This document shows positions 5,380 through 29,402 of a stretch of 64,000 nucleotides of DNA, piece after piece. Origin of the DNA: Fibrobacterota bacterium (GTDB taxonomy: Bacteria; Fibrobacterota; Fibrobacteria; UBA11236); contig JAHFCH010000004.1 in assembly GCA_023249635.1 (NCBI GenBank), forward strand, positions 13,730-77,729, read 5' to 3'. Within the stretch, counting starts at the first letter, position 1, and each line of letters opens with the position of its first letter. Made by a program: the position numbers and the translations under genes. A model generated the notes under the pieces. It did not search any database. It was not told the DNA's origin and saw only the letters and a list, made by a program, of their open reading frames with translations.

Positions 5380-5384
5380 CCGAC

Positions 5385-5720: not shown

Positions 5721-5744
5721 GGTGACAATATTGAAAGGGGTGGC

Positions 5745-6554: not shown

Positions 6555-6574
6555 TTCGAACCTCCAGAGGATGT

Positions 6575-6913: not shown

Positions 6914-6919
6914 GACCAT

Positions 6920-6948: not shown

Positions 6949-7062
6949 TTGGTAACTATGATTCGGTTGATAGCGGATACAGGTATATCGGTTTTTGGCA
7001 TTAATTTCAAAGCCAAAATCCCCAAGGGACGTAAAAAATGGCCCAAGAATGGTTACGAACTG

Positions 7063-7689
7063 CTATGGAAAAATACTTTGAAAGGAAGGTTGCAGCCCTT
7101 TTGATTCGAGTAGGGGCAACGCCAAATCAACCCGTTCTCCATTCAATTTAACGATGCGGGCAGGAGTCCCGGCCACGGTACTGTTTGGCGGGACATTGCG
7201 CATGAATATGAAGGAGTTGGCCCCGATAAAGGAATTCGATCCGACATGGATGGGACCAAGGAGAACGCTATTTGTTCCAACATAGACGCGGTCGGCCAAT
7301 GTCGGGTGCCTTTTTTCCCGATGTTTACCCGTCCCGCCTAGGGTTACGTTATGAAAGAGGGTGCATTGATTCCCGATTACCGCGGTTTCTCCAATCACGA
7401 CTCCGGTTCCATGGTCGATGAAAAAATCCAGACCAATCTGTGCACCCGGATGGATTTCCACTCCGGACCAGAAACGGGCCAATACGGACAAAAGCCTCGG
7501 AATCAAGGGGACGCCGGACCGGAAAAGGCTATGGCTAATCCGATACAGTAAAATCGCATGGAGCGGGGTATGGCATAAAAGGGTTTCCAAACCGTTTTTC
7601 GACGCAGGATCATTCCTGCGAACCGCTGCGTAGTCTCGATAAAGGGTTCTGAACAAACCTGGTTTTGGAAACTTCGCGCCCGAACTCAT
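7063..7689 (-). CDS. cysE: Serine O-acetyltransferase (short CysE type, hexapeptide-repeat)
   Basis: The internal ATG at 7689 overlaps the pstB stop as ATGA (7689-7686). The segment GVEIHPGAQIGLDFFIDHGTGVVIGETAVIGNQCTLFHNVTLGG...RHPTLADRVYVGTNSVLLGPIHVG is the CysE left-handed beta-helix signature. Confidence 0.85.
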   Translation of the reverse strand: MSSGAKFPKPGLFRTLYRDYAAVRRNDPASKNGLETLLCHTPLHAILLYRISHSLFRSGVPLIPRLLSVLARFWSGVEIHPGAQIGLDFFIDHGTGVVIGETAVIGNQCTLFHNVTLGGTGKHREKRHPTLADRVYVGTNSVLLGPIHVGSNSFIGANSFIFMRNVPPNSTVAGTPARIVKLNGERVDLALPLLESKGLQPSFQSIFP

Positions 7690-8507: not shown

Positions 8508-8533
8508 TCAGCAACCTCACGGGAAAAGCGGAT

Positions 8534-11083: not shown

Positions 11084-11108
11084 ATTCATTCTCCTGTTCA
11101 TGGGTTGG

Positions 11109-12155: not shown

Positions 12156-12281
12156 AGGATTCCCTTTCATCCGGATTTTCGTTGAGCGTATTCCGCCGCG
12201 GCAGGTGCGGCGAATCGAGATCGGGAGCAAATATACGATGATTGGTTTTGATCCAAATGAATTATTTGCCAATAACCCAAC

Positions 12282-12396: not shown

Positions 12397-12741
12397 TCAT
12401 GAAATAACGGAATGAAAACTCTGAGCTGTAGTGATCAACCCATGGAGCGCAATCTGGAAAATCCCCCAAAACTCCGAAAAGGTTCCGCGACTTAAGGAAA
12501 AAAAGGATTTAGGCCCAAAAGTCCTCACCTCAATCAACCCCGAATCGGACAAATCCCGCAAATGGCGCGAGACCGTTGACTGGGCGAGAGGCATCCGATC
12601 CACAATTTCCGAACAGCTTATGGAGTCGTATTGAGCAATGAGCGTGAGGATTTCCAGACGCGCAGGGTGCGAAAGCGCCTTTGCGAAAGATGCAGCCTTT
12701 TGGCTCGCCGCGGGGAATACGGACTTCTTGCTGAGCGCCAC
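12397..12741 (-). CDS. ArsR/SmtB-family regulator lacking the As(III)-binding cysteines
   Basis: LSHPARLEILTLI and LAQSTVSRHLRDL form the HTH. There is only one Cys (SISCSEIV). It has no CxC, no CYC and no C-terminal CC. The GTG start lies 7 nt after the -10 hexamer. Confidence 0.85.
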   Translation of the reverse strand: MALSKKSVFPAASQKAASFAKALSHPARLEILTLIAQYDSISCSEIVDRMPLAQSTVSRHLRDLSDSGLIEVRTFGPKSFFSLSRGTFSEFWGIFQIALHGLITTAQSFHSVIS

Positions 12742-12747: not shown

Positions 12748-12776
12748 AATATCGTCTATTTACGATTTAAAGTCAA
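12748..12776 (-). promoter_or_regulatory. Promoter of arsR-porin-pst-cysE with embedded operator
   Basis: The minus strand reads TTGACT (12776-12771), a 17-nt spacer, then GATATT (12753-12748). The spacer holds ATCGTAAATAGACGAT (12766-12751). The GTG start at 12741 is the 7th nt after the -10. Confidence 0.6.
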
Positions 12777-12820
12777 GCGCGCACCTTCCTCATTTTCCGG
12801 AAATTTCCCGGGTATTCTTA

Positions 12821-12836
12821 ATCGTTTATCTGCGAT
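12821..12836 (+). promoter_or_regulatory. Putative ArsR operator facing the arsI block
   Basis: ATCGTTTATCTGCGAT fits the same ATCG-N8-CGAT frame. Its right half overlaps TGcGATTTA, a possible extended -10, about 100 nt upstream of the arsI ATG. Confidence 0.45.
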
Positions 12837-13505: not shown

Positions 13506-14015
13506 ATGAAAAGCATATGGGAACGTGTCGCGGAATCGGAGAAGGTCGAGAACGACAGCGCTGTCGACTTCCCTACCGATAGCCGCATGCATGTCAGCCT
13601 CAACGTCTCAAACCTGGAAGAGTCGGCCAAATTCTACCGCGTGCTGCTCAACCAGAATCCAAGTAAGGTCAAAGAAGGGTACGTCAAGTTCGAGTCGGTC
13701 GAGCCCGCCATCAATCTAACCTTGAACGATTTCCCCAACGAGACCTCGACGGATGGCCACTTCGGAATCCAAGCCAAAGGGACGGAAGTCATCATGGCAA
13801 ACTACGACCGCTTCAAGGCCAGCGGCTTCAAAATCACCACCGAAGACGATATCGAGTGCTGTTACGCGGTTCAATCCAAAATCTGGGTGGCCGACCCGGA
13901 CGGGAACCGGTGGGAATTATTCGTGACCACCGCCCCTGAAGCGGAGGAAGGTTGCGGTCCCGAGTGCATTTGCCATCGGGAGTTCGAACGCAGTTACGTC
14001 ATCGAGGGCAAGTAA
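13506..14015 (+). CDS. arsI: ArsI C-As lyase, copy 2
   Basis: The motif set is the same as copy 1: MHVSLNV, GYVKF, GHFGIQA and IECCYAVQSKIWVADPDGNRWELFVT. The tail reads EEGCGPECIC. Confidence 0.85.
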   Translation: MKSIWERVAESEKVENDSAVDFPTDSRMHVSLNVSNLEESAKFYRVLLNQNPSKVKEGYVKFESVEPAINLTLNDFPNETSTDGHFGIQAKGTEVIMANYDRFKASGFKITTEDDIECCYAVQSKIWVADPDGNRWELFVTTAPEAEEGCGPECICHREFERSYVIEGK

Positions 14016-14063: not shown

Positions 14064-14333
14064 ATGAAATTGAACAACATCAAATCCGTCAATGAGACCA
14101 AGAAAGGCGTTTCCGTCCATCTAGGCGGCGATATCGAGGTCGATAAGGTGAAGGCCATGGTCGCAAAATGCGGCACCGGAACCTGCAGCTGCTGCGGCCC
14201 CGAGTTCGTCCAAGCCCTCCAAGGCATCGACGTCGACGGGAAAGACGGAAGCGTAACCATGACTATCAAAGGCCCGGTTACCAAGGACGTCATTTCGGAA
14301 AAGCTCGCCATCTGCGACTGCTATAACACATGA
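14064..14333 (+). CDS. Small Cys-rich protein of unknown family (89 aa)
   Basis: AAGGAG lies 7 nt upstream. The protein has a KCGTGTCSCCGPE cluster and a C-terminal ICDCY. It has no signal peptide and matches no family I recognise. Confidence 0.6.
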   Translation: MKLNNIKSVNETKKGVSVHLGGDIEVDKVKAMVAKCGTGTCSCCGPEFVQALQGIDVDGKDGSVTMTIKGPVTKDVISEKLAICDCYNT

Positions 14334-14433: not shown

Positions 14434-15408
14434 ATGAGTCAAAAAGTAGCCGAGAAAACAGACAAGCACGCATCAGTCGAGGAACTGTACAGCACCGCTG
14501 CAAAGGCGCCCCAACCCGGGCTATGCTGCCCCAAGCCCTACATGAACGAAATGACGGCCCACATCCCCAAGGAAGCCTTCGAATTCAACTACGGTTGCGG
14601 GAGCCCCGTCCTCAAAGCCGGGATCAAGGCCGGGGACACCGTAGTGGATCTCGGATCCGGAGTCGGGATTGACTGCTTCGTAGCCGCCAAGCTCGTAGGG
14701 CCCAAAGGCAAGGTGATCGGAATCGATCTCACCGAAGACATGCTTGCGAAGGCCAACAAATATAAAGCCATCGTCGCCCAAAACCTGGGATACGATGTGG
14801 TGGAATTCCGCAAGGGTCTGATCGAATCCATTCCGCTCGAAGCCCAATCCGCCGATGTCGTCCTCTCCAACTGCGTCGTCAACCTGTCCCCGGACAAGGA
14901 AAAGGTCCTCAATGACGTCCGTCGCGTACTGAAGATCGGCGGCCGCGCCGTGATCTCGGACATCGTAAGCGATCGCGATGTGGAACAGGTCCATCAGGAT
15001 GACAAGAAGCTATGGGCGGAGTGCTATACCGGCGCGCTTTCCGTGAAGGCGTTCCTGGAGGCGTTCAAGAAGGCCGGCTTCTACGGACTCTCCCAACTCG
15101 CCGAAACGGCATGGCAAGAAGTCGAAAGTTACAATTTCGCGTCCATCACCGTGGAAGCGTTCAACTATCCCAAGAGCTCGTGCTGCGGAGCACTCGATCA
15201 TTTCGCCGTTTATCTCGGGCCGTACGAATCAGTTGCGGACGAAGATGGCCACCAATTCCCCCGGTTCAAGGCGGTCCCGGTCTGCGCAGAGACCGCGTCA
15301 CGACTGGCTGGGAGCCCGTTCGAATCCAACTTCGTCGTGGCCTTCGCGGGTCGCGAACTCAAACCCGACGCCAATTCATGCGCCCCTGGGGGAGCCTGCT
15401 GCGGCTAA
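14434..15408 (+). CDS. Second, divergent ArsM-like SAM methyltransferase with C-terminal extension
   Basis: The N-terminal region has GLCCPKPY and NYGCGSP. The SAM motif is VVDLGSGVGIDCF, followed by SNCVVNLSPDK and WAECYTGA. An extra roughly 100 aa ends in SSCCG...CAPGGACCG. Confidence 0.75.
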   Translation: MSQKVAEKTDKHASVEELYSTAAKAPQPGLCCPKPYMNEMTAHIPKEAFEFNYGCGSPVLKAGIKAGDTVVDLGSGVGIDCFVAAKLVGPKGKVIGIDLTEDMLAKANKYKAIVAQNLGYDVVEFRKGLIESIPLEAQSADVVLSNCVVNLSPDKEKVLNDVRRVLKIGGRAVISDIVSDRDVEQVHQDDKKLWAECYTGALSVKAFLEAFKKAGFYGLSQLAETAWQEVESYNFASITVEAFNYPKSSCCGALDHFAVYLGPYESVADEDGHQFPRFKAVPVCAETASRLAGSPFESNFVVAFAGRELKPDANSCAPGGACCG

Positions 15409-15418: not shown

Positions 15419-15452
15419 GGTATCCAGGGCAGAGCGTTTTGCCCTGGATACC
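15419..15452 (+). other. Perfect 13-bp inverted repeat between the methyltransferase and the PLP enzyme genes
   Basis: GGTATCCAGGGCA, loop gagcgttt, then TGCCCTGGATACC. There is no clean U-tract after it. It could be an attenuator, an RNA processing or stability element, or a protein-binding site. Confidence 0.5.
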
Positions 15453-15498
15453 ATACCGCATTTGTTACCCACTTTTCACCGAATGGAAGACTGATTGC

Positions 15499-16821
15499 AT
15501 GTTCACCCAAGCCGAAATCAAGGAACTCCGCAAGGATTTTCCCGCCTTGAACCAGGTTAATCCCAAAAACGGTCGGCCACCGGTCTATCTGGATAACAGT
15601 TGCATGACCATGAAGCCCTCGGCCGTTGCCGAAGCGGAATGGGACTATAACACCAAATACCCGGCCTGTGGGGGGCATCGGGGTAGCTATTGGTTCGCTG
15701 AAATCGTGCATGAAAAGGTCGAAGCCGCCCGGGCAGCGCTCGCATCTCTAATCAAGGCACCGGCAGCGAAAAGTTCCGAAGGGAAACCTCTTTACCCCAT
15801 CATCTTTACCCGGAACGCGACAGAAGGTTTGAATCTAGTGGCCTCTACCCTGGGTCTTATGCCCGGTGAAACCGTCCTTATAACCGACAAAGAACACAAT
15901 TCCAACCTGTGCCCCTGGCAGGAATTCGAGAAGCGAGGCGGCAAAGTCATCATCCTTGCCACCAAGGCGGACAACACGTTCGACATGCCTGCCTTCAAGG
16001 CCGCCCTGGCAAAAGACCGCTCCATCAAACTCGTCTCCCTCAACCACAGCTCAAACCTCGACGGGGTTACCAACCCTCTCCAACAAATCGTTAAGGCCGT
16101 TCGCGATACGGAAAAGAAGCAGGCCAGGAATATCTTTATCGCCGTTGATGGCGCCCAAAGCCTCCCCCATCTGCCGTTGAATCTTGGCGAACCCGAGGCG
16201 CCTGGCTTCCTCGACGTCGATTTTTTCGCCGGCTCCATCCATAAAATGTTAGGCCCCTCAGGCATCGGATTCCTCTATGGCAAGCCGGAACTTTTAGACT
16301 GCCTCCCGCCGTACATGGTCGGAGGGTCGACCATATACGAAACCTCGGCCTACCATCGACCGGTTTATGCCGAATGGCCCGCGCGATTCGAAGCGGGCTT
16401 GCAAAATTACGGTGGGATCATCGGTGCGGGTGCGGCGGTCAAATACCTTACCTCCATCCTGCCCCGCATCAAAGGCTATGAAAACCATTTGAACGGGATC
16501 CTGACCGATGTCCTGAAACCTCTGCACGCGGCCGGGAAAATCCGCATCCTCGGGCCCGAAGATGCCCACCAGCGGGGGGGGGTCCTTACCCTGCTGGCGC
16601 CGGAACGCCCGGAAGGAGATCGGATGCGGGCGCTGCGGGAAAAATCATGGCAGCACAACCTCATGTATCGAACCGGCCATTTCTGCGTTGACGTTTGGTT
16701 CTCGACCCGTCAGGACAAGCTCTATCCCGCTTACACGCCGATCCGCCTGTCGGCCTACTTCTACAACACCGAATCCGAAGTCGAGACAACCGCCAAGGTC
16801 ATCCGGGAAATATTCGCTTAG
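15499..16821 (+). CDS. Class-V aminotransferase, cysteine desulfurase / selenocysteine lyase-like (SufS/CsdA-like)
   Basis: Internal ATG of track ORF 15439-16821. The PLP lysine is in FFAGSIHKMLGPSGIGFLYG. The active-site loop is YRTGHFCVD (compare RTGHHCA of SufS). The N-terminal motif is RKDFPAL. Confidence 0.85.
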   Translation: MFTQAEIKELRKDFPALNQVNPKNGRPPVYLDNSCMTMKPSAVAEAEWDYNTKYPACGGHRGSYWFAEIVHEKVEAARAALASLIKAPAAKSSEGKPLYPIIFTRNATEGLNLVASTLGLMPGETVLITDKEHNSNLCPWQEFEKRGGKVIILATKADNTFDMPAFKAALAKDRSIKLVSLNHSSNLDGVTNPLQQIVKAVRDTEKKQARNIFIAVDGAQSLPHLPLNLGEPEAPGFLDVDFFAGSIHKMLGPSGIGFLYGKPELLDCLPPYMVGGSTIYETSAYHRPVYAEWPARFEAGLQNYGGIIGAGAAVKYLTSILPRIKGYENHLNGILTDVLKPLHAAGKIRILGPEDAHQRGGVLTLLAPERPEGDRMRALREKSWQHNLMYRTGHFCVDVWFSTRQDKLYPAYTPIRLSAYFYNTESEVETTAKVIREIFA

Positions 16822-16829
16822 GAACAATC

Positions 16830-17630
16830 ATGCCCACCAAGACTCTCCCCCACCCCCTCACGGCAGACCCATTCGATCGGACGAAACGCCGACTCTTTGA
16901 ATTGTACCGGATGGGAAGCAAGCCCTATCATGCTTGGTTCCATGGCTATGCCGAAATCACGGCCCGGTGCAGCAACAACAATCTCCATGCCTATGGCCTA
17001 TATGTAGGCATCGAAAAAGGCGTCATTACCCGAGTCGGCTACACCAAAGGCGCAGGTAAAGCCCGCAATGCGGCATCCACCGATGAGGTTCACGCTTCGG
17101 TTGCCGCTTTCTGCGGCTATGTCAAGGGGAAACGCATTGAAGACGCCTTGGCTGTGGATATGAAATCCATCCTGAGCCACTACGGCTGCTGGAATGGCCA
17201 CTCACCGGGCCTTCTGAAAACCTTGGAGCGTTCGCGACCGGAAGACCTGGTCCAGTTCAAGGCTACGACTCCGGATGCTCTGTTCAGCCTCGCTTTGGGT
17301 GGAGGCCTCCCTTTCGTTCTCCTGAACTGGGCGATTCTCAATTACACCATCAAGAACGAACTCGTCAATATCGTCGGGGATGCGGCACAGCCCTTCGTGC
17401 GGTTCAAGGACGTAAACCAGGCCCTTAAGTTGGTCAATGCCCTGAAGAATCACCCGGCCCTCGGGGCTCAACGAAGAGCGATGGAAATCGGCGTACGCGC
17501 GTTGCAATTCAATTCCGTGGATGATTCCAGCTTAAGGCTTGCATACCAACGGCATACCTTCGACGGATTCGCGAAGAACGCGAACGCCAAGGGATTTTAC
17601 ATCCTCGATCGATTCCTGTTGCTCAAGTGA
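16830..17630 (+). CDS. Degenerate IscU/NifU-N-like domain protein with an unknown C-terminal half
   Basis: ATG 16830 lies 8 nt after the desulfurase stop. By eye, ARCSNNNLHAYGLYVGIEKGVITRVGYTKGAGKARNAAS...FCGYVKGKRIEDAL aligns to IscU APACGDVMKLQIKV..GIIEDARFKTYGCGSAIASSS...WVKGKSLDEA. The second scaffold Cys is replaced by Ala. Confidence 0.5.
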   Translation: MPTKTLPHPLTADPFDRTKRRLFELYRMGSKPYHAWFHGYAEITARCSNNNLHAYGLYVGIEKGVITRVGYTKGAGKARNAASTDEVHASVAAFCGYVKGKRIEDALAVDMKSILSHYGCWNGHSPGLLKTLERSRPEDLVQFKATTPDALFSLALGGGLPFVLLNWAILNYTIKNELVNIVGDAAQPFVRFKDVNQALKLVNALKNHPALGAQRRAMEIGVRALQFNSVDDSSLRLAYQRHTFDGFAKNANAKGFYILDRFLLLK

Positions 17631-17658: not shown

Positions 17659-20600
17659 ATGAAAAAGAGCTTTCTCGTCGATTTCTCAATCAAGCGACCC
17701 AAGACCGTCATTGGCCTTACCATGGCGCTTACCGCCATAATGATGCTTCCCTTCCCGAAGGTGAAGCTGGATACCAATCCAAAAAATATGCTGCCGCCCG
17801 ATGCGGAAGTCCGCATTTGGAATGCCGAGGTGGAGAAAACCTTCGGTCTTTACGAAGATCTGATCGTCGTAGGCGTGACCAACCCGGCAGGGGTGATGAA
17901 CAATACCACCCTTAAAAACATTTCCGTATTGACCGATGGGATCCAGAAAATCACGGGGGTGGCCGCCGCCGATGTATCCAGCTTGGTCAACGTGGATGAT
18001 GTCTCCGCGAATGGCAAATCCCTGGAAGTCAAACCGATCGTCAGCGGACTGCCATTGGAGGAAAAGGATCTGGCTGAAATCGGCGCCTCGGCGATAGCCA
18101 ATCCGCTGCTTGCCGAAAAACTGCTTTCCAAGGACGGAAAGACCACCGCCGTTTATGTCCCCATGGAAAAAGGCGCCAATGGAAAAGTGATCGCGGAAGC
18201 CATCAAGTCCATGATCGCGAAACTGCCGGTTTCCGGAAAAGGGGGTGACAAATTCTTTGTCACAGGCGACCCGGTAGCCAGGGACACTTTCGGCGATTTC
18301 ATGTTCAAGCTGATGGCGGTATTTTCCCCGGTGTCCTGCTTTCTCATGATCGCAGCCATGTACCTGATGTTCCGAAGCATCCCGCTGTGCATCAGCATGA
18401 TGGCCGTCTCGAATATCGCGATCATCTGGAGCGTTGGCCTGGTAATCGCTTTGGGGTTCCCCATCCATCTGATGGCCTCAATGGCCCCGGTCTTTCTGAT
18501 GGCTATCGCGACCGATAGCATCCACATTTTCACGGAGTTTTACTTCCGTTATGCAGAAACCCGGGACCGTAAGCGCGCAATCCTGGAGACCATGGCGGTT
18601 GTAAGCCATCCCGTGAAGTACACCGCATTGACGACTGCGGTGGCTTTTTCCGTGCTCCTATTCATGAAAATCATACCGGTCCAGGTATTCGGAGGCATGA
18701 TCGCCTTCGGCACCATCGCGCTTCGGCTTCTCAGCTTCTCATTCATACCCGCCATCATGGCCCTGCTTGGTGAGAAATCCCTGCTGAAAGTCGCCGCGAA
18801 ATCCCAGGCTTCCGCGGGGCGCCCGGCCGGATTCTTGCGTGGTCTGGCAATGGCCGGCGCCGGCAATCCCCGCCTTGTCGTAGGCGTTGGATTGATATTG
18901 TGCGCGCTGTCCATCGTGGGGATTTCCCGGGTCGTCGTGAACAACAACATGGTCGAATGGTTCAACAAGAAAAATGAAGTCCGAATCGCCGATATGGCGC
19001 TGAATAAAAGCCTCGGGGGCACCTCGCTAGGGTACATGGTTGCCATTGCCGATCCCGGCCAAGGTGAATACATGAAGACCCCCGAGGGACTGCGGTTCCT
19101 TGCGGGACTTCAGCGTAGGTTGGAAAACATCCCGGAAGTCGGCAAGACCAGTTCCATCGCCGACATCGCATCCCGCATCAATCTTGTGTTGCACGGGAAC
19201 GACCCCGTCTACGCAGGCATACCTAAGACCAAGGAAGAAGCCGGGCAATTCCTCTTTCTTTTCTCAATGTCCGCCAAACCGTCGGACGTGAAAAACCTGG
19301 TGGATGACTCCTACGGGAAGGCGAACGTCTGGATCCAGATGAAAACCTGGGATGCTAAGGCGATGCGGTCGGTGATACGTGAATCCCAAGCCTATTTGAG
19401 GGAAAATCCTGCGCCCGTACAATTGAAACCCGCGGGTATCGCCTACTTCAACCTGGCGTGGAACGACGAAGTCCTTTACGATATGTTGAAGGGCTTCGTG
19501 TTGGCCATCTGCGTGGTTTATTCCATCCTCGTATTGAATTTCCGTTCCTTCAAGTGGGCCTTGATAAGCTACGTACCCCTCCTCTTCACTATTCTCCTTA
19601 TCATCGGAATGGTGGGCTTCGTCGGCAAGGACCTCGACATGCCCATCTCCGTCTTGTCCTGCCTTTCCCTGGGCATGGCGGTCGATTTCGCCATCCATTT
19701 CATCAACCGCTTCCGGCAGAAGATGGCTGACAGCGGGTACACGGGGACCGCTGCCGAAGTCAGGGAATGCCTCCTCTGGACCGCTTCGCGGCCGGGTCGC
19801 GGCATTCTGCGGAACGCAATCCTTTTCGGATCGGCATTCCCGGTGATGATGCTTTCTCCCCTGACCCCATATGTCACGGTGGGTGCTTTCATCCCCAGCA
19901 TGATGATTCTAAGCGCATTCCTGACTCTACTGTACCTTCCGGCCCTAATCGTGCTCCTCCGCAAATGGCTATTCAACGGGCAACAAGCGGGACGCGCGGG
20001 AAAACCCGCGGCAGCGGAAAATCTTTCGGTTTCCGCCATGAAAATGGGTCTGTTGCTTATTGGCTCAATCGCGATTCCGCTTCATTCCGAAGAAAACCCG
20101 GCCGCAATAGTGAAGGCTTACCAGAACTCCTTCTATTACCAAGGCTCAACCTTTCGCGGGCGCCTCAAATTGAGCCTGATTGATGCGGACGGAAAGGCCC
20201 GTACCAAAGACATGACCATGGTTCGCGCCACCACGGTTCCCGGAGCGGATCAACGGTACTTCATGTATTTCCATGCCCCAGGCGACGTAAAGGGCATGTC
20301 CTTCCTGGTTTTCAAGTACCCGAACAAGGAAAGCGATCGTTGGCTGTTTATCCCCAGCGTTGACATGGTGCAGCGCATCGCCGCACGGGATGCGGGCTCC
20401 AGTTTCGTGGGATCCGATTTCTCCTATCAGGATATCTCCGGACGGTCAATGGAGGCTGACGAATTCTCCTATGTGAAAGAGGAATTAGTGGCCGGAAAGA
20501 AGTGCCAGGTAGTAGCCAGCGTTCCAAAAAGCAGCGCTGGCTATACCAAGAAGACGTCCTGGATTGACGTGGAGACGTTCCTCCCCATTAAGGAGGAGTA

Positions 20601-20817
20601 TACAGACGTTCAGGGTAAAGTCTTCAAGCGATTCACGGCCGATAGCATTGCCGATCTTTCCGGCCACCCGTTAGTCGTAAGGGGAACTATGACCAACCTC
20701 AAGACCAATCACTCTTCCAAATTCGAATTCAGCGATGTTGCATATGACTTTAAAGCCAACGGGGACGAATTCACTGAGAGGGCCCTCCGGAATCCGCCTC
20801 GGGGTTGGATCAATTGA
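17659..20817 (+). CDS. MMPL/RND-superfamily exporter (COG1033-like, 12 TM) fused in frame to a LolA-like 'outer membrane lipoprotein-sorting' domain
   Basis: The 1052-aa ORF has two 6-TM bundles with large periplasmic loops. From about aa 794 it reads FRGRLKLSLIDADGK...VKGMSFLVFKYPNKESDRWLFIPSVDMVQRIAARDAGSSFVGSDFSYQDISGR, the LolA-like (DUF4367/PF17131-type) signature as I recall it. Confidence 0.8.
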   Translation: MKKSFLVDFSIKRPKTVIGLTMALTAIMMLPFPKVKLDTNPKNMLPPDAEVRIWNAEVEKTFGLYEDLIVVGVTNPAGVMNNTTLKNISVLTDGIQKITGVAAADVSSLVNVDDVSANGKSLEVKPIVSGLPLEEKDLAEIGASAIANPLLAEKLLSKDGKTTAVYVPMEKGANGKVIAEAIKSMIAKLPVSGKGGDKFFVTGDPVARDTFGDFMFKLMAVFSPVSCFLMIAAMYLMFRSIPLCISMMAVSNIAIIWSVGLVIALGFPIHLMASMAPVFLMAIATDSIHIFTEFYFRYAETRDRKRAILETMAVVSHPVKYTALTTAVAFSVLLFMKIIPVQVFGGMIAFGTIALRLLSFSFIPAIMALLGEKSLLKVAAKSQASAGRPAGFLRGLAMAGAGNPRLVVGVGLILCALSIVGISRVVVNNNMVEWFNKKNEVRIADMALNKSLGGTSLGYMVAIADPGQGEYMKTPEGLRFLAGLQRRLENIPEVGKTSSIADIASRINLVLHGNDPVYAGIPKTKEEAGQFLFLFSMSAKPSDVKNLVDDSYGKANVWIQMKTWDAKAMRSVIRESQAYLRENPAPVQLKPAGIAYFNLAWNDEVLYDMLKGFVLAICVVYSILVLNFRSFKWALISYVPLLFTILLIIGMVGFVGKDLDMPISVLSCLSLGMAVDFAIHFINRFRQKMADSGYTGTAAEVRECLLWTASRPGRGILRNAILFGSAFPVMMLSPLTPYVTVGAFIPSMMILSAFLTLLYLPALIVLLRKWLFNGQQAGRAGKPAAAENLSVSAMKMGLLLIGSIAIPLHSEENPAAIVKAYQNSFYYQGSTFRGRLKLSLIDADGKARTKDMTMVRATTVPGADQRYFMYFHAPGDVKGMSFLVFKYPNKESDRWLFIPSVDMVQRIAARDAGSSFVGSDFSYQDISGRSMEADEFSYVKEELVAGKKCQVVASVPKSSAGYTKKTSWIDVETFLPIKEEYTDVQGKVFKRFTADSIADLSGHPLVVRGTMTNLKTNHSSKFEFSDVAYDFKANGDEFTERALRNPPRGWIN

Positions 20818-22064
20818 AATCGATTGTTCCTTTGGCCGCCTTAAAAGTGGCGGCTGTGCTTGCGTATGGCCAACCCGTGGACGTTTCGGGCGGACTCAAT
20901 GCCGTCTATTCCGCCAGGGTGGGAAATCATCCGGAACCCAATCCGGTGTCAGGTTCATTCCTGGCGGGAGAGGAAATTCTAAGGCTGAAGGCGGAGGCAC
21001 GATCGGAATCCGGTAGCGGTGGGTTTATGGCCCTCGTGGAAAACACCTACGACAACCTTAGCCAAGATAACCGATTGGATATCCGTGAGGCATACGCCAC
21101 CCTTCCATTAGGCGCATTCGATATCCGGGCCGGCAAACAGATCATCACGTGGGGAACCGGAGATTTCCTCTTTATCAATGATTTCTTCCCCAAGAACTAC
21201 GCCGCATTCTACGCTGGCCTACCCATTGATCATCTAAAGGAGGGCCTGACCGCACTAAGGATTTCGGGCTATAGTTCAGCGGCGAATCTTGAAATCGTAG
21301 CCACCCCATTTTTCCAGGAAAACATTTTCCCCGGCCAGGATCGATTCATTTTGCCTAAAGATCCCGCGGGCGGCCTCGCCCCGCCCCTCATTCATCCTTC
21401 CCTCCGGTTTGAAAACGGAGAAGTGGCGATTCGCCTTTACCGCAACATCCTGGGTTGGGATGCGGGCCTTTATGGGTACACCGGGCATAACCGACAGCCC
21501 ACCTTGCAGATTTTACCTGCGGATACGGGGGCCAATCTTCGGATCGCCTTCCCTCAAATTGCCTCCGGGGGAATCAGCCTTACCGGCAGCCTACCCCTGG
21601 CCGTGATCAACCTGGAAGCCGGATTTTCCCATCCGTTCGCCGATGGCGCGTGGAAGGCCCCGCTTCTCCCGGATCAAGAATTGAAATTTCTCGGCGGATT
21701 AAAAGCCGGACAGACAGGGGCATGGTCACTCGGCGTCCAATATTATGCCGAGCTCAACGAATTCAATCCCAATACCGCGAACATGCGATCCGGGAATCCT
21801 TTTGTGCCGGAAAATATCCACCAAATATTGACATCCAGTCTGGACTTGAGCCCGGGTTACCAGACTTTGCGAATCTATTGCTTCGCCTACTACGACCTTA
21901 CCTACCGGGAATCCTTAGTCATGCCGGAAATATCCTACCAGGTTACCGATCGGGCGACGATCGCTCTCGGCGGTCGCGGCTATTACGGAAACGGTGATCC
22001 AAGAAGCTTTGGTTACTATGGCTCGAATGATTGTGTGTTCACCCGCGTCTCGTATAGTATCTGA
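20805..22064 (+). CDS. Putative outer-membrane beta-barrel partner of the exporter
   Basis: TTG starts at 20805 or 20814; the latter overlaps the upstream stop as TTGA. The signal-like N-terminus is KSIVPLAALKVAAVLAYG. The body is rich in Y/G/N alternating segments. The C-terminus is ...FTRVSYSI. I cannot assign a family. Confidence 0.5.
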   Translation: MDQLKSIVPLAALKVAAVLAYGQPVDVSGGLNAVYSARVGNHPEPNPVSGSFLAGEEILRLKAEARSESGSGGFMALVENTYDNLSQDNRLDIREAYATLPLGAFDIRAGKQIITWGTGDFLFINDFFPKNYAAFYAGLPIDHLKEGLTALRISGYSSAANLEIVATPFFQENIFPGQDRFILPKDPAGGLAPPLIHPSLRFENGEVAIRLYRNILGWDAGLYGYTGHNRQPTLQILPADTGANLRIAFPQIASGGISLTGSLPLAVINLEAGFSHPFADGAWKAPLLPDQELKFLGGLKAGQTGAWSLGVQYYAELNEFNPNTANMRSGNPFVPENIHQILTSSLDLSPGYQTLRIYCFAYYDLTYRESLVMPEISYQVTDRATIALGGRGYYGNGDPRSFGYYGSNDCVFTRVSYSI

Positions 22065-22068
22065 ACCC

Positions 22069-23358
22069 ATGAATATGCGCGCAACGCCCTATTTCCAAAC
22101 CCAGGTGATCGGCTGTGGGCCGGGCGCTTTGGGGTTGGCAGTTGCTGCCGACAGGTTGAAACTGCTGGACTCCCTGCTTGGGCAAGGGATCGCTTTCTTG
22201 GAAAAGGCGCCGAATCCGAAGGAACTATTCAACCAGCGGTTTCCCTTTCTCATCGAATCCAATTCTATTGCCGACGACTTTTTCAAATCCATCGATAGCG
22301 AAGGCGCCTTCTCGGAAACCTGCCGGAATGAAAATTCCAGGCTCGTATTCTCACGAGAAGGCCGCACCCTACCCCTTGAATTGATAAAAGCCTTCATGAA
22401 CGACTTAACCAAAGCTTTCCTGGAAAAATGCTGCTTCTCCGGGGCCAGCGGAATCTTTTTTGGCCGGGAAATCGATCATCTTCAAATCGGTGAAGATGGG
22501 TCTGTAACGAGCTTCAATCGTTCCGGAGCGCCTATCGCCAAGTCCATGTACGCAGTGCTGGCGACTGGGGCGGGAGAAAACCTGCCTTTACATGCGCATG
22601 GTCCAGGCAATCTTTTCCATTTCCTTCCTTCCGGTGAGGTTTTATCCGGAAAATTCGCTGAGATCTCCCGGGAAATAGCCTCCGGTAAGCCAATCATCAT
22701 TCTCGGCGGTTCCCATAGCGCCTTTTCGGTTGCGCTTTTAATCCTTGATCGCTTCGGTTCCCGGCTCTCCACCGGCCAAATCCAACTTTACCACCGCGGC
22801 GTCTGCCTTTACTTTACCTCCCAACGCGAAGCTTCAGAATCCGGCTACTTCCTTCCCGGAGCGCATATTTTCCGCTCTACCGGGGAGGTGAATAAATTCA
22901 ATGGCTTGCGAGGAAGGGCGAAAAACCTCTATCAGCAAGTTCAATCCGGCATAGAAATGCGCGTCTCCGTAAAAGGCAAAAACGCATACGCGGATTTCCT
23001 CGCCAAAGCGGAATTCCCCGCCCTTATCATTCAGGCTACCGGATATAAGACTCGCCGAATCGGAATCATAAACCACATGGGCGTGCCCATCCGTAATCTG
23101 CATTCCAATAAGAACTGCATGGTCGATTCCCAATGCCGCCTACTCGATTCCTCGGGGGAAATCCTGCCCAACCTCTTCGGCATCGGCATCGGATATCCCC
23201 GCCTGAGCGAGAACAAGGAATTGAAAATCGGAGTCAATTTCTTCCATGGGCCGGATGGGGAAACCATCGTGCGGCAGATCGTATCGCCGTCAAAGACTAC
23301 CGTCTCCGCTGAGACTGCGCTTGCATCAAACTCAAACCTGAATGGAGTCCCAAGTTGA
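22069..23358 (+). CDS. FAD/NAD(P)-dependent flavoprotein monooxygenase, N-hydroxylase (SidA/IucD/PvdA)-like or FMO-like
   Basis: Internal ATG 4 nt after the upstream stop. The motifs are VIGCGPGALGLA (GxGxxG), AVLATGAGE, IIILGGSHSAFSVA (second dinucleotide motif, GGxxSA) and IIQATGYK (ATGY motif). Confidence 0.65.
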   Translation: MNMRATPYFQTQVIGCGPGALGLAVAADRLKLLDSLLGQGIAFLEKAPNPKELFNQRFPFLIESNSIADDFFKSIDSEGAFSETCRNENSRLVFSREGRTLPLELIKAFMNDLTKAFLEKCCFSGASGIFFGREIDHLQIGEDGSVTSFNRSGAPIAKSMYAVLATGAGENLPLHAHGPGNLFHFLPSGEVLSGKFAEISREIASGKPIIILGGSHSAFSVALLILDRFGSRLSTGQIQLYHRGVCLYFTSQREASESGYFLPGAHIFRSTGEVNKFNGLRGRAKNLYQQVQSGIEMRVSVKGKNAYADFLAKAEFPALIIQATGYKTRRIGIINHMGVPIRNLHSNKNCMVDSQCRLLDSSGEILPNLFGIGIGYPRLSENKELKIGVNFFHGPDGETIVRQIVSPSKTTVSAETALASNSNLNGVPS

Positions 23359-23474
23359 ACAAGGACAAACTCTCCAAGGCAATCGGCAACTCCCCGGAGG
23401 CGAACAGCTCTGTAACCTGGTCGAATAACCTGAAACGCGGGCGGGTTCCCGGACCCAGGATGAAGGAAAACAAA

Positions 23475-24656
23475 ATGCTTCCCGATACGTTGGGGGGCTC
23501 TACCATCGCAGTGCATGGGGGAACCTATGAGGATCCGATCACCGGTGCGGTCGGGACTCCTATTTTCCAAAGCAGCACCTTCAACTTTTCCAAGCACACG
23601 TACGATTCATTCGCACAAGGCCTGATTCGGGATATCCCGACCTATACGCGGTATGGCAACCCTACCGTTTGGAGCACCCAGGAAAAGATTTCCCAGCTTG
23701 AAAACGCGGAGAGCACCATTCTGTTTTCCTCGGGAATGTCCGCAATCACCACGACGCTGGTAGGCCTTACGAATCGTGGGGGGCATATCATCAGTTCCTT
23801 TGACGTGTACGGGGGAACGTATAACTTCCTCCGGGAGGATATCCATCAGTTGGGGCGTGAGACGACTCTCGTGGATGGCACCGACCTTGCCGCCGTCGAT
23901 GCCGCGATAAAACCCAATACCCAGGTCCTTTTTTTCGAAACACTTTCCAACCCGCTCCTGAAGGCGCTTCCGCTACGCGGCCTCGCCTCGCTGGCCAAAG
24001 CCAGGAATCTTCTGCTTGTCGTCGACAACACCTTTCTCTCCCCTATCTGCCTCCGTCCCCTCGATGAAGGGGTTGATATCGTCCTGCACAGCTGTTCCAA
24101 ATACATGAATGGCCACAGCGACCTAATTGCCGGATCGGTCTCCGGATCAAGAAAATATGTCGACCGTATCTGGTCGCAAATGCTCAAGTTCGGCGGCAAC
24201 GTGAATCCGCTTTCCGCCTTTCTTTTGGAACGCGGCCTGAAAACGCTTGCTTTACGCATGCAGGCACATGTCTCCAATTCCAAGCAGCTGGCCGCGTTCC
24301 TTGCGAATCATCCCAAGGTCACACGCGTGCATCACCCGTCCTTGCCCAACTACGAATATCCGTGGATTCAAGAATATTGCCGGAACGGGTACGGAGGGAT
24401 GGTCAGCTTCGAAGTGAAAGGCGGGAACGAAGCGGCGCTGGCTTTACTCACCCATTTGAAAATCCCGCTCGTCGCCACAAGTTTGGGCGGCGTAGAGTCC
24501 TTGATCTCTTTGCCTTTCAATACGTCCCATTCCTTTCTAACCGAAAAGCAACGCCAACAAATCGGCATCATGCCGGGTCTTATCCGCCTCTCCGTGGGCG
24601 TCGAGAACATCCAGGACCTCACGGCCGATTTCGATACGGCGCTCGGTCAGATTTAA
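23475..24656 (+). CDS. Cys/Met-metabolism PLP enzyme (cystathionine gamma-synthase / gamma-lyase / O-acyl-homoserine sulfhydrylase family)
   Basis: The PLP lysine is in HSCSKYMNGHSDLIAG. Other motifs are AVHGG...PIFQSSTF, YTRYGNPT and VVDNTF. I chose ATG 23475 because AAGGAA lies 6 nt upstream. Alternatives are ATG 23460 or TTG 23355, which overlaps the upstream stop. Confidence 0.85.
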   Translation: MLPDTLGGSTIAVHGGTYEDPITGAVGTPIFQSSTFNFSKHTYDSFAQGLIRDIPTYTRYGNPTVWSTQEKISQLENAESTILFSSGMSAITTTLVGLTNRGGHIISSFDVYGGTYNFLREDIHQLGRETTLVDGTDLAAVDAAIKPNTQVLFFETLSNPLLKALPLRGLASLAKARNLLLVVDNTFLSPICLRPLDEGVDIVLHSCSKYMNGHSDLIAGSVSGSRKYVDRIWSQMLKFGGNVNPLSAFLLERGLKTLALRMQAHVSNSKQLAAFLANHPKVTRVHHPSLPNYEYPWIQEYCRNGYGGMVSFEVKGGNEAALALLTHLKIPLVATSLGGVESLISLPFNTSHSFLTEKQRQQIGIMPGLIRLSVGVENIQDLTADFDTALGQI

Positions 24657-24689
24657 AGCAGGACACCCTCCAAACCATCGGGAGCAAAG

Positions 24690-25949
24690 ATGAAAAACGG
24701 TTTCAATGTCAGCGGCGTCAGCGAAATGGTCCATGAGTTCAAGGCGAAACCCCGGGAAGCACAGTTGGATTTTTCGGCCCAGGCCTCCTGGCGCGAGGAC
24801 CGATATGACCTTACCATCCAAACCCTTAATGCGGGAACCATCCGGATTCCGCGGGATTTCGGCCTTGAAGTCCGTCCGTTCAATGAAGTGATTAACGACA
24901 TTCCTACTCCGCAAGAACTTTTGATCCTCGCGTTGGGGAGCTGCGTCCTTGTCACCTATGTCCAGGGGTGCAGCGCCAGAGGCATTACCTTGACCAGCCT
25001 TGAAGTGCATTCGGAAGGGCTGGTGCCAAGCGGGGAAGGTACGTTTGGGCAAAAAGCCACCGGACTTAAGCTCAAGGTCGACATCGATTGCGAAGGGGCT
25101 CCCGAAGCCATCAAGGAGATTGCCCAGTTCGCGGGCTGTTTCAGCCCCAATCACCGCACCTTTGTCGAAGACAACAATCCTAGTGTGGAACTATCCATTA
25201 AGGATGGCTCGAGTCGATCCTTCCTGGGCGAATTGAATCCGGAAGCTCCCACGTCGCGGAAGCAGGAAAGCCCAACCGGTGGCCTTCATCCGGTAATCGC
25301 CAAGTCCATTTGGAGATACGGGCTGCAAATCGATTCGCGACTCGAATCCGAGTCTCCGTTCCCTCCGAATTCCCATTCGACGAAAGGCCAGAAACCCGTT
25401 CACAAGTTAAAGGTGGATCAGCCGAAGCAGCTTGGCGGTATCGATCTGGCGCCGAATCCGCAAGAATATCTCCTCGCGGCGATGGCCGGCGAATTGGCCG
25501 CTAATTTTGTCCGACTCGCAAGGAGAGAGGGTTTGAACATCAAATCCGTTTCGGTAAACGGTTCAGGTCGCCTCGATTTACGGGGCATCCTGAATGTGGC
25601 GCCCGTCCCGGTCAAAATGCACAACCTGAGGTTCCATTTGGAAGTGGTCTCGGATGCCTCACAGGAAATCCTGAAACGGATAGCGGGAGATGCTCTCAGC
25701 GACGCGACATCCTTTGCCACCATATCCCAAGCGAACGAGATCGCCGTATCCGTGAAAATGGGCGGTAAACCGCTCCTGGAGTTCACAAGCAATATGCGTC
25801 ACGTGGAAATGTTTCTGACGAACATGCGCGAAAAGATGCGAAAGGCCCAGGAAGAGAAGGAAAAATCCGCCGCTCCCGAAACGGTTCCTTTCTATAAGCG
25901 CGTATTTCCCTTCGGGAAGCTGAAAGGCATGAAGCAGGGCGCGCAATGA
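24690..25949 (+). CDS. Tandem OsmC/Ohr-fold protein (two OsmC-like domains in one chain)
   Basis: Domain 1 has TPQELLILALGSCVLV and FAGCFSPNHRTF, so both peroxidatic and resolving Cys positions are present. Domain 2 has NPQEYLLAAMAGELAANF and no Cys. Confidence 0.7.
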   Translation: MKNGFNVSGVSEMVHEFKAKPREAQLDFSAQASWREDRYDLTIQTLNAGTIRIPRDFGLEVRPFNEVINDIPTPQELLILALGSCVLVTYVQGCSARGITLTSLEVHSEGLVPSGEGTFGQKATGLKLKVDIDCEGAPEAIKEIAQFAGCFSPNHRTFVEDNNPSVELSIKDGSSRSFLGELNPEAPTSRKQESPTGGLHPVIAKSIWRYGLQIDSRLESESPFPPNSHSTKGQKPVHKLKVDQPKQLGGIDLAPNPQEYLLAAMAGELAANFVRLARREGLNIKSVSVNGSGRLDLRGILNVAPVPVKMHNLRFHLEVVSDASQEILKRIAGDALSDATSFATISQANEIAVSVKMGGKPLLEFTSNMRHVEMFLTNMREKMRKAQEEKEKSAAPETVPFYKRVFPFGKLKGMKQGAQ

Positions 25950-25973: not shown

Positions 25974-26315
25974 ATGGCCCAAAGCAAGAAATCGGAATTC
26001 GGGATTAAGGATCAGAAGTTGGCCGACTTCGCCAAGGCCTTTTCACATCCCGCTCGGGTCTCGATATTGCGGATACTGGCCAAGCAGGGAACATGCATTT
26101 GCGGTGAACTCGTAGACGCGTTGCCTTTGGCTCAATCCACGGTCTCCCAGCATATCCGGGAATTGAAGGACGCCAACATTATTACCGGTGAAGTGGAGGG
26201 CCCCAAATCCTGTTATTGCATCAACTGGGCCGTGCTGGAAGATCAATGGAAGGCCTTTAACTCCATCCTACATGAGATGGAAGCCCATCAAGCCAAGCTT
26301 TGCTGCAAGACCTAA
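25974..26315 (+). CDS. arsR: ArsR/SmtB-family repressor (CIC type with C-terminal CC)
   Basis: FSHPARVSILRIL, CICGE, LAQSTVSQHIRELK, CYC and terminal LCCKT. Confidence 0.9.
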   Translation: MAQSKKSEFGIKDQKLADFAKAFSHPARVSILRILAKQGTCICGELVDALPLAQSTVSQHIRELKDANIITGEVEGPKSCYCINWAVLEDQWKAFNSILHEMEAHQAKLCCKT

Positions 26316-26347
26316 TACCTAGCCAGGAGACCATCACTTTGAAGAAG

Positions 26348-26725
26348 ATGCTTTTTGTTTGCGTAGAGAATTCAAACCGAAGCCAGATGTCCCAGGCCTT
26401 CGCGATTATCCATGGTGGACAATCCGTAGAAAGCTACAGCGCCGGTTCACGGCCCTCCGGGAAGGTGAATCCTAAAGCGATCGCATCAATGCGGGAATTG
26501 GGCTATGACCTCTCCCGGCATGCTTCCAAGAGCCTTGAGGAAGTGCCTGACCTTGAATACGATGCCGTTGTGACAATGGGCTGCGGGGATGCCTGTCCGA
26601 ACATCCGTGCGAAGCGGCGTATCGATTGGCAGATTCCCGATCCGCGGAATATGGAACCCAATGAATTCCGCAATGTCCGCGATCTGATTCAGGGTAAAGT
26701 TCGAGACCTAATCTCTGAAATTTAG
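26348..26725 (+). CDS. arsC: Arsenate reductase, LMW-PTP type (second copy)
   Basis: MLFVCVENSNRSQMSQAF is the CX5R loop, and VTMGCGDACP is also present. It is a close paralogue of 4981-5379. A TTG at 26339 with AGGAGA upstream is an alternative start. Confidence 0.9.
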   Translation: MLFVCVENSNRSQMSQAFAIIHGGQSVESYSAGSRPSGKVNPKAIASMRELGYDLSRHASKSLEEVPDLEYDAVVTMGCGDACPNIRAKRRIDWQIPDPRNMEPNEFRNVRDLIQGKVRDLISEI

Positions 26726-26784
26726 TTCCCCGAACCGATCCGGAATTTTGCCGATCTTTTTGGCCCGGGCCTACTATGAAGTAT

Positions 26785-26813
26785 ACCCAATCGGCGGGTA
26801 CGGCCGATTGGGT
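26785..26813. terminator. Perfect 11-bp inverted repeat at the right island border (bidirectional terminator candidate)
   Basis: ACCCAATCGGC, loop gggtacg, then GCCGATTGGGT. It sits between the convergent arsC (stop 26725) and the lipoprotein gene (stop 26914). Confidence 0.5.
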
Positions 26814-26913
26814 CTCGTTGGCACACTACGCTCTCAGGAAGGGAGGGCATAGGCAATTCGCCCCACGCCCTCCCTGCGATAACCCGGCCCCCAACCTCGG
26901 CCGGCTACCGAAT

Positions 26914-29076: not shown

Positions 29077-29402
29077 GGTCAGGTCTCCTTGTGTTGGGCT
29101 GGAGGGCTTTCCGCCTCCGGGTTGCTTCACATCTATAGGATACCTGAATTACGGGCGCAGGAATATATCATCATATCTACTGTATTACATCTGGAAGGAT
29201 TTTAATCGCTTTACATCGTTATTTTAGCGGTTATTGTCCCTATCGGTACATCTTATTCATCTTATTTCATATTACAATTGACACCTTGAATACGCATAAA
29301 AACAGGTTTTCCATATTACGGATTAGCCCGATTGGAAAAGCCTTTGGCTTACGGAGCGGTTCCGGCCGGAAAGGTTCCGGGGTGAAGGGATTCCGCCCCG
29401 CT

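Follow-up and report, generated by a model that had tools for sequence, protein, structure and literature searches.

A flavoprotein, a Cys/Met-family PLP enzyme and a tandem OsmC-like protein: a recurrent gene cassette within an arsenic-regulated operon of a Fibrobacterota bacterium

We analysed a 64,000-nucleotide stretch of contig JAHFCH010000004.1 from a Fibrobacterota bacterium (assembly GCA_023249635.1), referred to here as the window. The window contains an arsenic-regulated operon in which three adjacent genes encode a flavoprotein, a Cys/Met-family pyridoxal 5'-phosphate (PLP) enzyme and a tandem OsmC-like protein. An earlier note on this DNA had singled out the first two. In the searchable literature we found neither the trio nor its occurrence within an ars operon described. 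The families of the three proteins, their recurrence in other bacteria and the operon around them are described below, followed by a proposal for what they do together.

Family assignment of the three proteins

The flavoprotein is encoded by an open reading frame spanning 21994-23358, with the coding start at ATG 22069. Translation and a pattern check confirmed the genes for the flavoprotein and the PLP enzyme together with every motif that the earlier note had quoted for them; in the flavoprotein these are GCGPGALG (residues 15-22), ATG (at 165 and 323), GGSHSA (at 213) and ATGY (at 323, within IIQATGYK). Both dinucleotide-binding elements are present, a flavin adenine dinucleotide (FAD) loop of the GxGxxG type (G15-x-G17-x-x-A) and a Rossmann motif for reduced nicotinamide adenine dinucleotide phosphate (NADPH; GGSHSA, 213-218). 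An exhaustive HMMER search recovered 588 representative relatives, 79 of them below 1e-30, and a word-indexed search of 5.8 billion proteins returned only 21, the nearest being 61% identical and the next about 35%. Across 55 family members the hallmarks are SNS (64-66), GxSHS (213-217), R281 and AxGY (323-326), with H216 and S217 kept in 54 of the 55. The invariant Asn65 of S-N-S resembles the Asn of the 'SNSSKE' sequence of flavin-containing monooxygenases (FMOs). No cysteine is conserved in these 55 members. C16 of the window protein lies in the glycine-rich FAD loop, where a conserved cysteine marks YpdA/Bdr; Cys is found at this position in 6 of the 55 relatives, and Phe in 32. A classical disulfide reductase or sulfide:quinone reductase was considered as the lead role and rejected because the family has no conserved cysteine.

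The flavoprotein had no Pfam match (E <= 1 included) and no NCBIfam match (E <= 0.01), and its gene was also not matched when the models for N-hydroxylating monooxygenases (NMOs; PF13434) and FMOs (PF00743) were searched genome-wide at E <= 10. The ArsO model NF040505 (cut-off 425 bits), searched against the same genome, likewise left this gene unmatched at E <= 10 and gave its sole match on another contig, at 23 bits. The placement against NMO, FMO and ArsO models that the earlier note had asked for thus returned no match to the flavoprotein; the protein is therefore not ArsO. When a profile of the 55 members was compared with the PDB, the best matches were MbtG (1.7e-6), DesB-type enzymes (5e-6 to 1e-5), putrescine N-hydroxylase, KtzI, PvdA and SidA, and ferredoxin-NADP and thioredoxin reductases ranked behind these N-hydroxylases. 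Weak matches to PF13434 were found in 17 of the 55 members (best 9.6e-8), and the PGAP label for a relative in Shinella is 'SidA/IucD/PvdA family monooxygenase'.

An AlphaFold model of the flavoprotein (mean predicted local distance difference test score 92.8) placed SidA, DesB and KtzI at the top of a Foldseek search, with TM-scores of 0.55-0.60. An exhaustive structural search gave SMFMO (4a9w, Z 22.6), an FMO-like protein of S. aureus (3d1c, Z 22.3), DesB (Z 21.4 over 342 residues), YpdA/Bdr (7a76, Z 21.3) and SidA (Z 20.2 over 349 residues), while generic pyridine-nucleotide disulfide oxidoreductases scored about Z 16 and AhpF Z 17. SMFMO and YpdA/Bdr score level with the three-domain N-hydroxylases in this comparison. 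The NMO motif D(x)3[LF]ATGY(x)4P is present in part, ATGY (323-326) being kept and the flanking D and P being absent; the FMO motif FxGxxxHxxx[YF] occurs in none of the 55 members. The kinship with SidA/IucD/PvdA enzymes and class-B FMOs proposed in the earlier note therefore stands insofar as these are the nearest proteins by profile and fold, and falls short in that there is no Pfam match, no FMO motif and only a partial NMO motif. On these profile and model comparisons, the flavoprotein probably represents a new family within the class-B/NMO-like oxygenases, rare and uncharacterised. In distant members (P0126, P0136, P0160) the flavoprotein fold is fused to a DegT aminotransferase or a UDP-GlcNAc 2-epimerase, a sign that its outlying branches may act on amino sugars.

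The second protein is a gamma-subfamily Cys/Met enzyme, as had been predicted. PF01053 (Cys_Met_Meta_PP) matched it over its full length (residues 49-430; 400.1 bits against a cut-off of 27), and the Schiff-base lysine K249, in SCSKYMNGHSD, aligned with that of methionine gamma-lyase (MGL). All catalytic residues of the subfamily are kept, namely the PLP Lys, the Tyr-Gly stacking pair, the Asp of VVDNTF and the Arg of RLSVG. The nearest solved relatives were MGL and cystathionine gamma-lyase/homocysteine desulfhydrase (1e-91 to 1e-86), with PDB matches continuing down to 1e-75. Among the best 25 of 45 matching NCBIfam models all equivalog cut-offs (MGL, cystathionine gamma-synthase, cystathionine gamma-lyase, CBL and OAH/OSH sulfhydrylase) were missed widely (for example 334 vs 594, 332 vs 550 and 327 vs 495 bits). 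The protein carries Y152-G153-G154 instead of YGC, whose active-site Cys is typical of MGL, and G154 is invariant in the clade to which it belongs. This clade comprises more than 100 proteins, 57-65% identical, across Actinomycetota and Pseudomonadota, and is set apart by about 70 invariant residues of its own and by a specific N-terminal extension with conserved W22, L26, R28, R30 and G33-P34-R35.

In a quick tree with approximate likelihood-ratio (SH-aLRT) support, the PLP enzyme of the window and its orthologue on a groundwater metagenome contig (L001; L numbers are our locus labels) formed one branch inside the clade of the biosynthetic-cluster type. Eleven substitutions are common to the enzymes of this ars lineage, all at positions with 85-97% conservation elsewhere, among them A129S (SGMAAI loop), T248S beside the catalytic Lys, L251M and C288A; these may reflect retuning of the active site or drift on a long branch. 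In the sister group (Inhella, L036) the OsmC partner has a single domain. Members of this sister clade (L015:9869-11807, L016:9845-11786, L036:4133-about 6000) are 51-53% identical and lie near a second, canonical Cys/Met enzyme, and the Inhella pair adjoins a TonB receptor and an S9 peptidase. A scan of genome contigs gave five close PLP loci. A metagenome scan with the PLP alignment, which used generic patterns, returned mostly canonical enzymes at 36-48% identity, the exception being L036 (53%, PLP plus OsmC).

The third protein matched PF02566 in two stretches (82 bits against a cut-off of 27.5), and its OsmC fold aligned with 2opl (GSU2788) at Z 12.5 over 171 residues. Cys85, at the peroxidatic position of domain 1, is invariant in 33 sequences. 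The resolving Cys149 is frequent and not invariant, and domain 2 has no cysteine at the equivalent sites. The flavoprotein and PLP genes are real genes rather than chance open reading frames, because the flavoprotein has 588 relatives and a confident fold and because dN/dS is low (against the groundwater orthologues about 0.13 for the flavoprotein and about 0.03 for the PLP gene, rough values given that dS is saturated). Each of the three proteins belongs to a known superfamily, and none was assigned to a characterised family by the tests run, which for the flavoprotein covered the NMO, FMO and ArsO models.

Recurrence of the cassette and its link to cysteine

The PLP and OsmC genes are adjacent in all close contexts examined: the window, L001, L003, L009-L016, L035, L116, L118-L120 and two further loci. 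The flavoprotein gene adjoins this pair in the window, L001, L003, L009, L010, L011, L014, L035, L116, L118, L119 and the two further loci, and the trio was found in either gene order. The three genes are thus one cassette, with the PLP-OsmC pair as its core. Every cassette context besides the window and L001 is a specialised-metabolism cluster. Four actinobacterial loci (L009, L014, L119 and one further locus) combine the cassette with a condensation-adenylation-peptidyl carrier-thioesterase synthetase, P450s, an AMP ligase and two KASIII-like genes. Two others, in Azospirillum and on a Shinella plasmid (L010, L116), are hybrid clusters of polyketide synthase (PKS) and non-ribosomal peptide synthetase (NRPS) genes. 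A minimal set is found at L118, with a stand-alone adenylation (A) domain, a carrier protein, the cassette and ABC transporters. Culturable carriers of the cassette are Streptomyces zinciresistens K42, Azospirillum agricola and a Shinella sp. The cassette also stands in a GriH/GriI-like aminobenzoate cluster (L003), beside ThiF-rhodanese, JAB, ThiS, a CoA-transferase and an AMP ligase (L011), and, at one further locus, with a PALP enzyme and a second Cys/Met enzyme.

To characterise the neighbouring synthetases we extracted the specificity codes of the A domains beside the cassette, which read DLFNMSLIW (L009), DLYNMSLIW (L014, L116, L010) and DLYNFSLVW (L118); the positions were mapped by GrsA landmarks and the codes are approximate, and the match is close. 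DLYNMSLIWK is listed among Cys-activating signatures (PMC12283262). An internal control is provided by L010, where a Cy motif and an Ox domain are paired with DLHNLSLIW. The cassette is therefore tied to cysteine in three independent cluster architectures (five loci), as neighbouring A domains carry the cysteine code. Further sulfur contexts are the ThiF-rhodanese/JAB/ThiS locus (L011), the locus with PALP and Cys/Met enzymes, the GFA-domain locus (L120) and, in the island of the window, a SufS-like pair and a CysE.

Some features of these loci stand apart from the cassette itself. The condensation domains of the cysteine-coded modules (L009:2392-7734, L014:4073-8734, L116:4578-8198, L010:3529-6948) have neither HHxxxDG nor the Cy-type DxxxxD, and may be non-canonical condensation-like domains with another role. 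L120 is the small, unannotated Kocuria plasmid AP022833.1, on which a compact cluster (127-9859) encodes a 2-oxoglutarate-Fe dioxygenase, two aminotransferases, the PLP-OsmC pair, a GFA-domain protein and an MFS transporter. At L004, L005 and L006 (about 1500-11224) a flavoprotein relative (P0006) is found without PLP or OsmC genes; its neighbours are an unfused MMPL pump, two LolA-like genes and a 421-aa gene, and the cluster also has carbamoyltransferase, PIG-L, GT2, DegT and B12-radical-SAM genes. Here, independently, the flavoprotein family stands beside this type of MMPL pump a second time. Arsenic genes are absent in 12 of the 13 distinct contexts of the flavoprotein family, that is, from eleven cassette contexts and the L004-L006 type.

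The arsenic-regulated operon and its island

The features of the operon and the island are collected in Table 1. The island extends from about 4.0 to 26.7 kb of the window and has a GC content of about 0.53, against 0.62 in the flanks. The cassette lies inside a co-directional block with arsR genes on both sides. Its flavoprotein ATG is 4 nt past the TGA of the upstream outer-membrane gene, and the PLP gene starts at a TTG with a 4-nt overlap with the flavoprotein stop and a GGAG 7 nt upstream, an arrangement by which the cassette genes are predicted to be translationally coupled to their neighbours. A promoter and terminator scan gave nothing above chance inside the operon. The island's own CysE, reported in the earlier note, was corroborated by matches to EpsC/CysE models.

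Table 1 Features of the arsenic-regulated operon and the island in the window
Feature	Position	Strand	Remarks
Serine O-acetyltransferase, CysE/EpsC type	7063..7689 (or 7782)	-	EpsC/CysE models; end of the island's pst-like operon
ArsR, divergent, at operon head	12397..12741	-	family match
Two ATCG-N8-CGAT palindromes (12751-12766, 12821-12836)	12751..12836		between arsR and arsI
Two ArsI/CadI-family genes	12937-13458 and 13506-14015	+	132.8 and 126.8 bits vs cut-off 116
89-aa protein	14064..14333	+	no family match; 93% identity to L001 copy
ArsM-like methyltransferase	14434..15408	+	219.5 bits, under arsenite-methyltransferase cut-off 263
SufS-like class-V PLP enzyme, then 266-aa partner without assigned family	15439..17630	+	
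MMPL/HAE3 pump fused to LolA-like domain, then DUF1302-like outer-membrane protein	17659..22064	+	
Flavoprotein, 429 aa	22069..23358	+	two-dinucleotide-binding fold
Cys/Met-family PLP enzyme, 433 aa	23355..24656	+	PF01053; catalytic Lys249
Tandem OsmC-like protein, 419 aa	24690..25949	+	PF02566
Terminal ArsR and low-molecular-weight-phosphatase-type ArsC	25974..26725	+	

The operon on the groundwater contig L001 has a gene order identical to that of the window, comprising 13 genes. Most operon proteins are 81-93% identical between the two, with a low group at 61-66% (barrel 65%, flavoprotein 61%, OsmC 66%, divergent ArsR 66%). The arsR-arsI palindromes are at the same place in L001, and one of the two is identical. 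Across the operon genes dN/dS between the window and L001 is 0.02-0.13, with dS saturated, and all are under purifying selection. As the gene order is kept in L001 despite saturated dS and with low dN/dS, the operon is old and under selection. The divergence is mosaic over 20805-25949, the PLP gene being 89% identical and flanked by the far more diverged barrel, flavoprotein and OsmC genes. Searches of 296 genomes from the window's phylum and of the 60 nearest genomes gave no relative of the flavoprotein. The drop in GC content, together with the lack of the flavoprotein from every other genome among these 296, indicates that the operon carrying the cassette was acquired horizontally.

Groundwater is the source of the window DNA, which is also present in a second sample from that study. 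In the metatranscriptome of the same sample, a 212-nt contig matched 14884-15095 in the ArsM-like gene with one mismatch, and a second overlapped by about 35 nt. These could be RNA or carried-over DNA, lie outside the cassette and are uninformative on expression. The island has a second ArsM (5745-6554), which at 312.6 bits is above the arsenite-methyltransferase cut-off of 263. The partner of the SufS-like enzyme gave no match in a tblastn search against plasmids. Neither Pfam nor NCBIfam gave a match for a 387-aa gene (11109-12272, minus strand) that separates the pst-like operon from arsR. Past the island, long open reading frames overlap on the two strands (26776-29205, plus; 26914-29130, minus), with a weak CarboxypepD_reg match on the minus strand only.

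Proposed function, alternatives and known systems

The gene families, the cassette and its contexts, the horizontal origin and the purifying selection are observed, whereas the chemistry proposed from here on is inferred at every step. Our preferred proposal, to which we give a probability of about one in three, is that the trio is a functional cassette acting on a cysteine-derived substrate through heteroatom oxygenation, C-S lyase cleavage and sulfenate handling, and that it has been co-opted here for arsenic-sulfur species. The flavoprotein, with NADPH and O2, would add oxygen to a soft heteroatom in a cysteine S-conjugate, namely S or, in the window, As. The PLP enzyme would then cut the C-S bond on the cysteine side to give pyruvate and ammonia, so that the partner keeps the sulfur in sulfenate or thio-oxo form, and the OsmC protein would use its peroxidatic-type Cys85 to reduce or carry the reactive sulfur product. 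In most bacteria the cassette would serve NRPS/PKS clusters that load cysteine. In the window and its groundwater relative it would have been inserted into an ArsR-controlled operon, where the likely substrates would be spontaneous cysteine adducts of (methyl)As(III) and the likely products thio-arsenicals, exported by the MMPL-LolA-barrel system.

We prefer an oxygenase, a C-S lyase and a sulfenate handler because this combination uses all three proteins and the cysteine link. The resemblance of the flavoprotein to oxygenases of soft nucleophiles and its lack of a redox cysteine are consistent with the proposal, and a thio-arsenical product would fit the SufS-like sulfur donor, the island CysE and the lipid-type exporter. 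Known reactions are consistent with the cleavage step: EgtE splits its cysteine sulfoxide conjugate by way of a sulfenic acid (PMC4493562), and MGL-family enzymes convert amino-acid sulfoxides to sulfenic acids and thiosulfinates (PMC4717258). Also in favour are the recurrent cassette, its sulfur contexts, MGL and cystathionine gamma-lyase as closest solved relatives of the PLP enzyme, the invariant Cys85 and, for control by arsenic, the operator palindromes shared with L001, the lack of an internal promoter or terminator signal above chance, the purifying selection and the ars-lineage changes in the PLP enzyme.

A number of points weigh against this proposal. By profile the flavoprotein family is nearest to N-hydroxylases, not S-oxygenases, and within the DNA examined it was not found at L012, at L013, on the Kocuria plasmid L120 or in the Inhella-type sister clade. 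To our knowledge, the three clades contain no characterised enzyme, none of the cassette clusters has a known product, and OsmC proteins are known as hydroperoxide reductases rather than sulfenate reductases. The ars operon has neither an adenylation domain nor a carrier protein, so its substrate must differ from that of the NRPS clusters. At the same time its PLP enzyme is about 65% identical to the cluster orthologues, a level that speaks against an arsenic-specific substrate and for one that has stayed the same. An As-S-cysteine substrate, finally, follows from general arsenic-thiol chemistry and not from the data.

The same genes can be read in other ways. It is doubtful, though it deserves consideration, that the cassette generates reactive sulfur. 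The PLP enzyme would then be a cysteine/homocysteine desulfhydrase or cystine lyase that yields H2S or cysteine persulfide, the flavoprotein would oxygenate sulfide or a thiol (to HSOH or a disulfide), and Cys85 of OsmC would be a persulfide carrier passing sulfane sulfur to acyl-carrier intermediates (as thioacids) or, here, to methylated As(III). The bifunctional cystathionine gamma-lyase/homocysteine desulfhydrase among the solved relatives, the neighbours at L011, the SufS-like pair in the operon and the single invariant Cys of OsmC all speak for such a role, although the flavoprotein differs from known sulfide-oxidising flavoproteins in having no conserved Cys, nothing observed points to persulfide carriage by OsmC, and with SufS in the operon another sulfur donor would be superfluous. 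An arsenic oxidase is improbable. In that case the flavoprotein would resemble ArsO or ArsV and oxidise methylarsenite, MAs(III), or another trivalent arsenical, with the PLP enzyme, OsmC and CysE supporting thiol and redox homeostasis. A class-B-like oxygenase fold in an ArsR-controlled operon agrees with this, and ArsV is reported (bioRxiv 10.1101/2021.08.12.456183) as a flavin monooxygenase that oxidises MAs(III). Besides the lack of an NCBIfam match, with NF040505 matching another contig only, the contexts argue otherwise: being tied to PLP and OsmC in all but the L004-L006 type, and having no ars genes nearby in 12 of 13 cases, the flavoprotein would act in a joint pathway rather than as an independent arsenic oxidase. 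The associated thiol- or sulfur-supply reading of the earlier note did gain some support, from the cysteine link.

Chemistry on arsenic-containing amino acids has a small chance of being correct. Here the PLP enzyme would make a C-As bond in a beta- or gamma-replacement, with As(III) as the nucleophile and O-acyl-serine or O-acyl-homoserine as the substrate, or, in reverse, would free MAs(III) for the two ArsI enzymes by gamma-elimination on an arsinothricin-like compound, while the flavoprotein would set the oxidation state of the arsenic. As ArsM illustrates, As(III) can act as a soft nucleophile through its lone pair, and the gamma-subfamily enzyme with all its catalytic residues, the ars-lineage changes beside the catalytic Lys, the ArsI and ArsM-like genes of the operon and the CysE of the island are all in keeping with this; yet the island lacks a homoserine O-acyltransferase, the exporter is of the lipid MMPL-LolA type rather than a polar amino-acid permease, the other cassette contexts are arsenic-free and cysteine-linked, and the SufS-like pair is left unexplained. 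The chance that the flavoprotein is an NADPH-dependent reductase of the OsmC peroxidase is slim. Such a pair, comparable to AhpF/AhpC or to YpdA and bacillithiol disulfide, would remove peroxide or hydroperoxide made by an O2-reactive PLP enzyme; YpdA/Bdr and AhpF are among the fold matches and domain 1 of OsmC keeps Cys85 and usually Cys149, but the flavoprotein has no conserved redox cysteine, the NMO/FMO alignments cover more of the model (342-349 vs 299 residues), and several PLP-OsmC pairs stand without a flavoprotein. It is very unlikely that the trio came into the island as part of a biosynthetic cluster and has no role related to arsenic. The position of the PLP branch inside the cluster-type clade and the absence of ars genes from all 11 other cassette contexts would suit a passenger of this kind. 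The 13-gene order kept in two lineages with saturated synonymous sites and low dN/dS, the translational coupling to neighbours and the position between arsR genes behind a conserved operator would not.

The recurrence of the cassette beside cysteine-coded A domains suggests an unrecognised use of cysteine, probably the installation of sulfur, and offers genome miners a new marker of sulfur chemistry. Its placement in an arsenic-regulated operon hints at enzymatic arsenic-sulfur chemistry. Thiolated methylarsenicals are toxic, and their formation is usually ascribed to abiotic reaction with sulfide; if our proposal is true, the operon would hold the first dedicated enzymatic route for arsenic thiolation. 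An undescribed enzymatic As-S or As-C step, whether a thio-arsenical route or the making or breaking of the C-As bond of an arsinothricin-like amino acid by the PLP enzyme, is unlikely on balance and would be testable in an ArsR-controlled set of ArsM-like, SufS-like and C-S-lyase-type enzymes with a lipid-type exporter. If the cassette merely supplies thiols, it would be ordinary as far as arsenic is concerned and still worth characterising.

Compared with known systems, the flavoprotein is like the N-hydroxylases of PF13434 (SidA, PvdA, IucD, DesB, KtzI, MbtG) in its FAD GxGxxG, its second Rossmann motif of the GG(G/S)(Q/H)SA type and its ATGY, and unlike them in identity (13-16%) and in its partners, which are a Cys/Met PLP enzyme and OsmC rather than siderophore synthetases. 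Small class-B FMOs (4a9w, 3d1c) and YpdA/Bdr (7a76) gave the highest Z, with a root-mean-square deviation of 3.4-3.8 over about 300 residues, whereas the FMO motif and a PF00743 match are absent from the flavoprotein. ArsO and ArsV are likewise flavoproteins of arsenic-regulated operons, although the family found in the window occurs mainly outside ars clusters. The PLP clade differs from MGL, cystathionine gamma-lyase and cystathionine gamma-synthase (PF01053) in always occurring with OsmC and in its own N-terminal extension.

The proposed logic of oxygenation, cleavage and a sulfenic acid is shared with EgtB/EgtE (ergothioneine), OvoA/OvoB and the FMO, alliinase and lachrymatory-factor synthase of Allium, a likeness of mechanism only. 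The Allium S-oxygenase 6wpu is a fold match of the flavoprotein (Z 15.9). The protein families differ from those of the cassette, EgtB being a non-haem iron enzyme, EgtE a class-V enzyme and alliinase of the EGF-alliinase fold, and we know of no OsmC partner in the EgtB/EgtE, OvoA/OvoB or Allium systems. In the ibotenic acid cluster, which serves a specialised amino-acid pathway, a flavin monooxygenase (IboF) is combined with cystathionine-gamma-synthase-like PLP enzymes (IboG1, IboG2), all with proposed roles (PMC7383597). That system is fungal, involves N-O bond chemistry on hydroxyglutamate and, unlike the cassette, has no OsmC and no cysteine link. The third cassette protein shares with the OsmC/Ohr thiol peroxidases the OsmC fold and the invariant Cys85 at the peroxidatic position, and is distinguished from them as a tandem fusion with a cysteine-free second domain and a resolving Cys that is not invariant, locked to the PLP gene.

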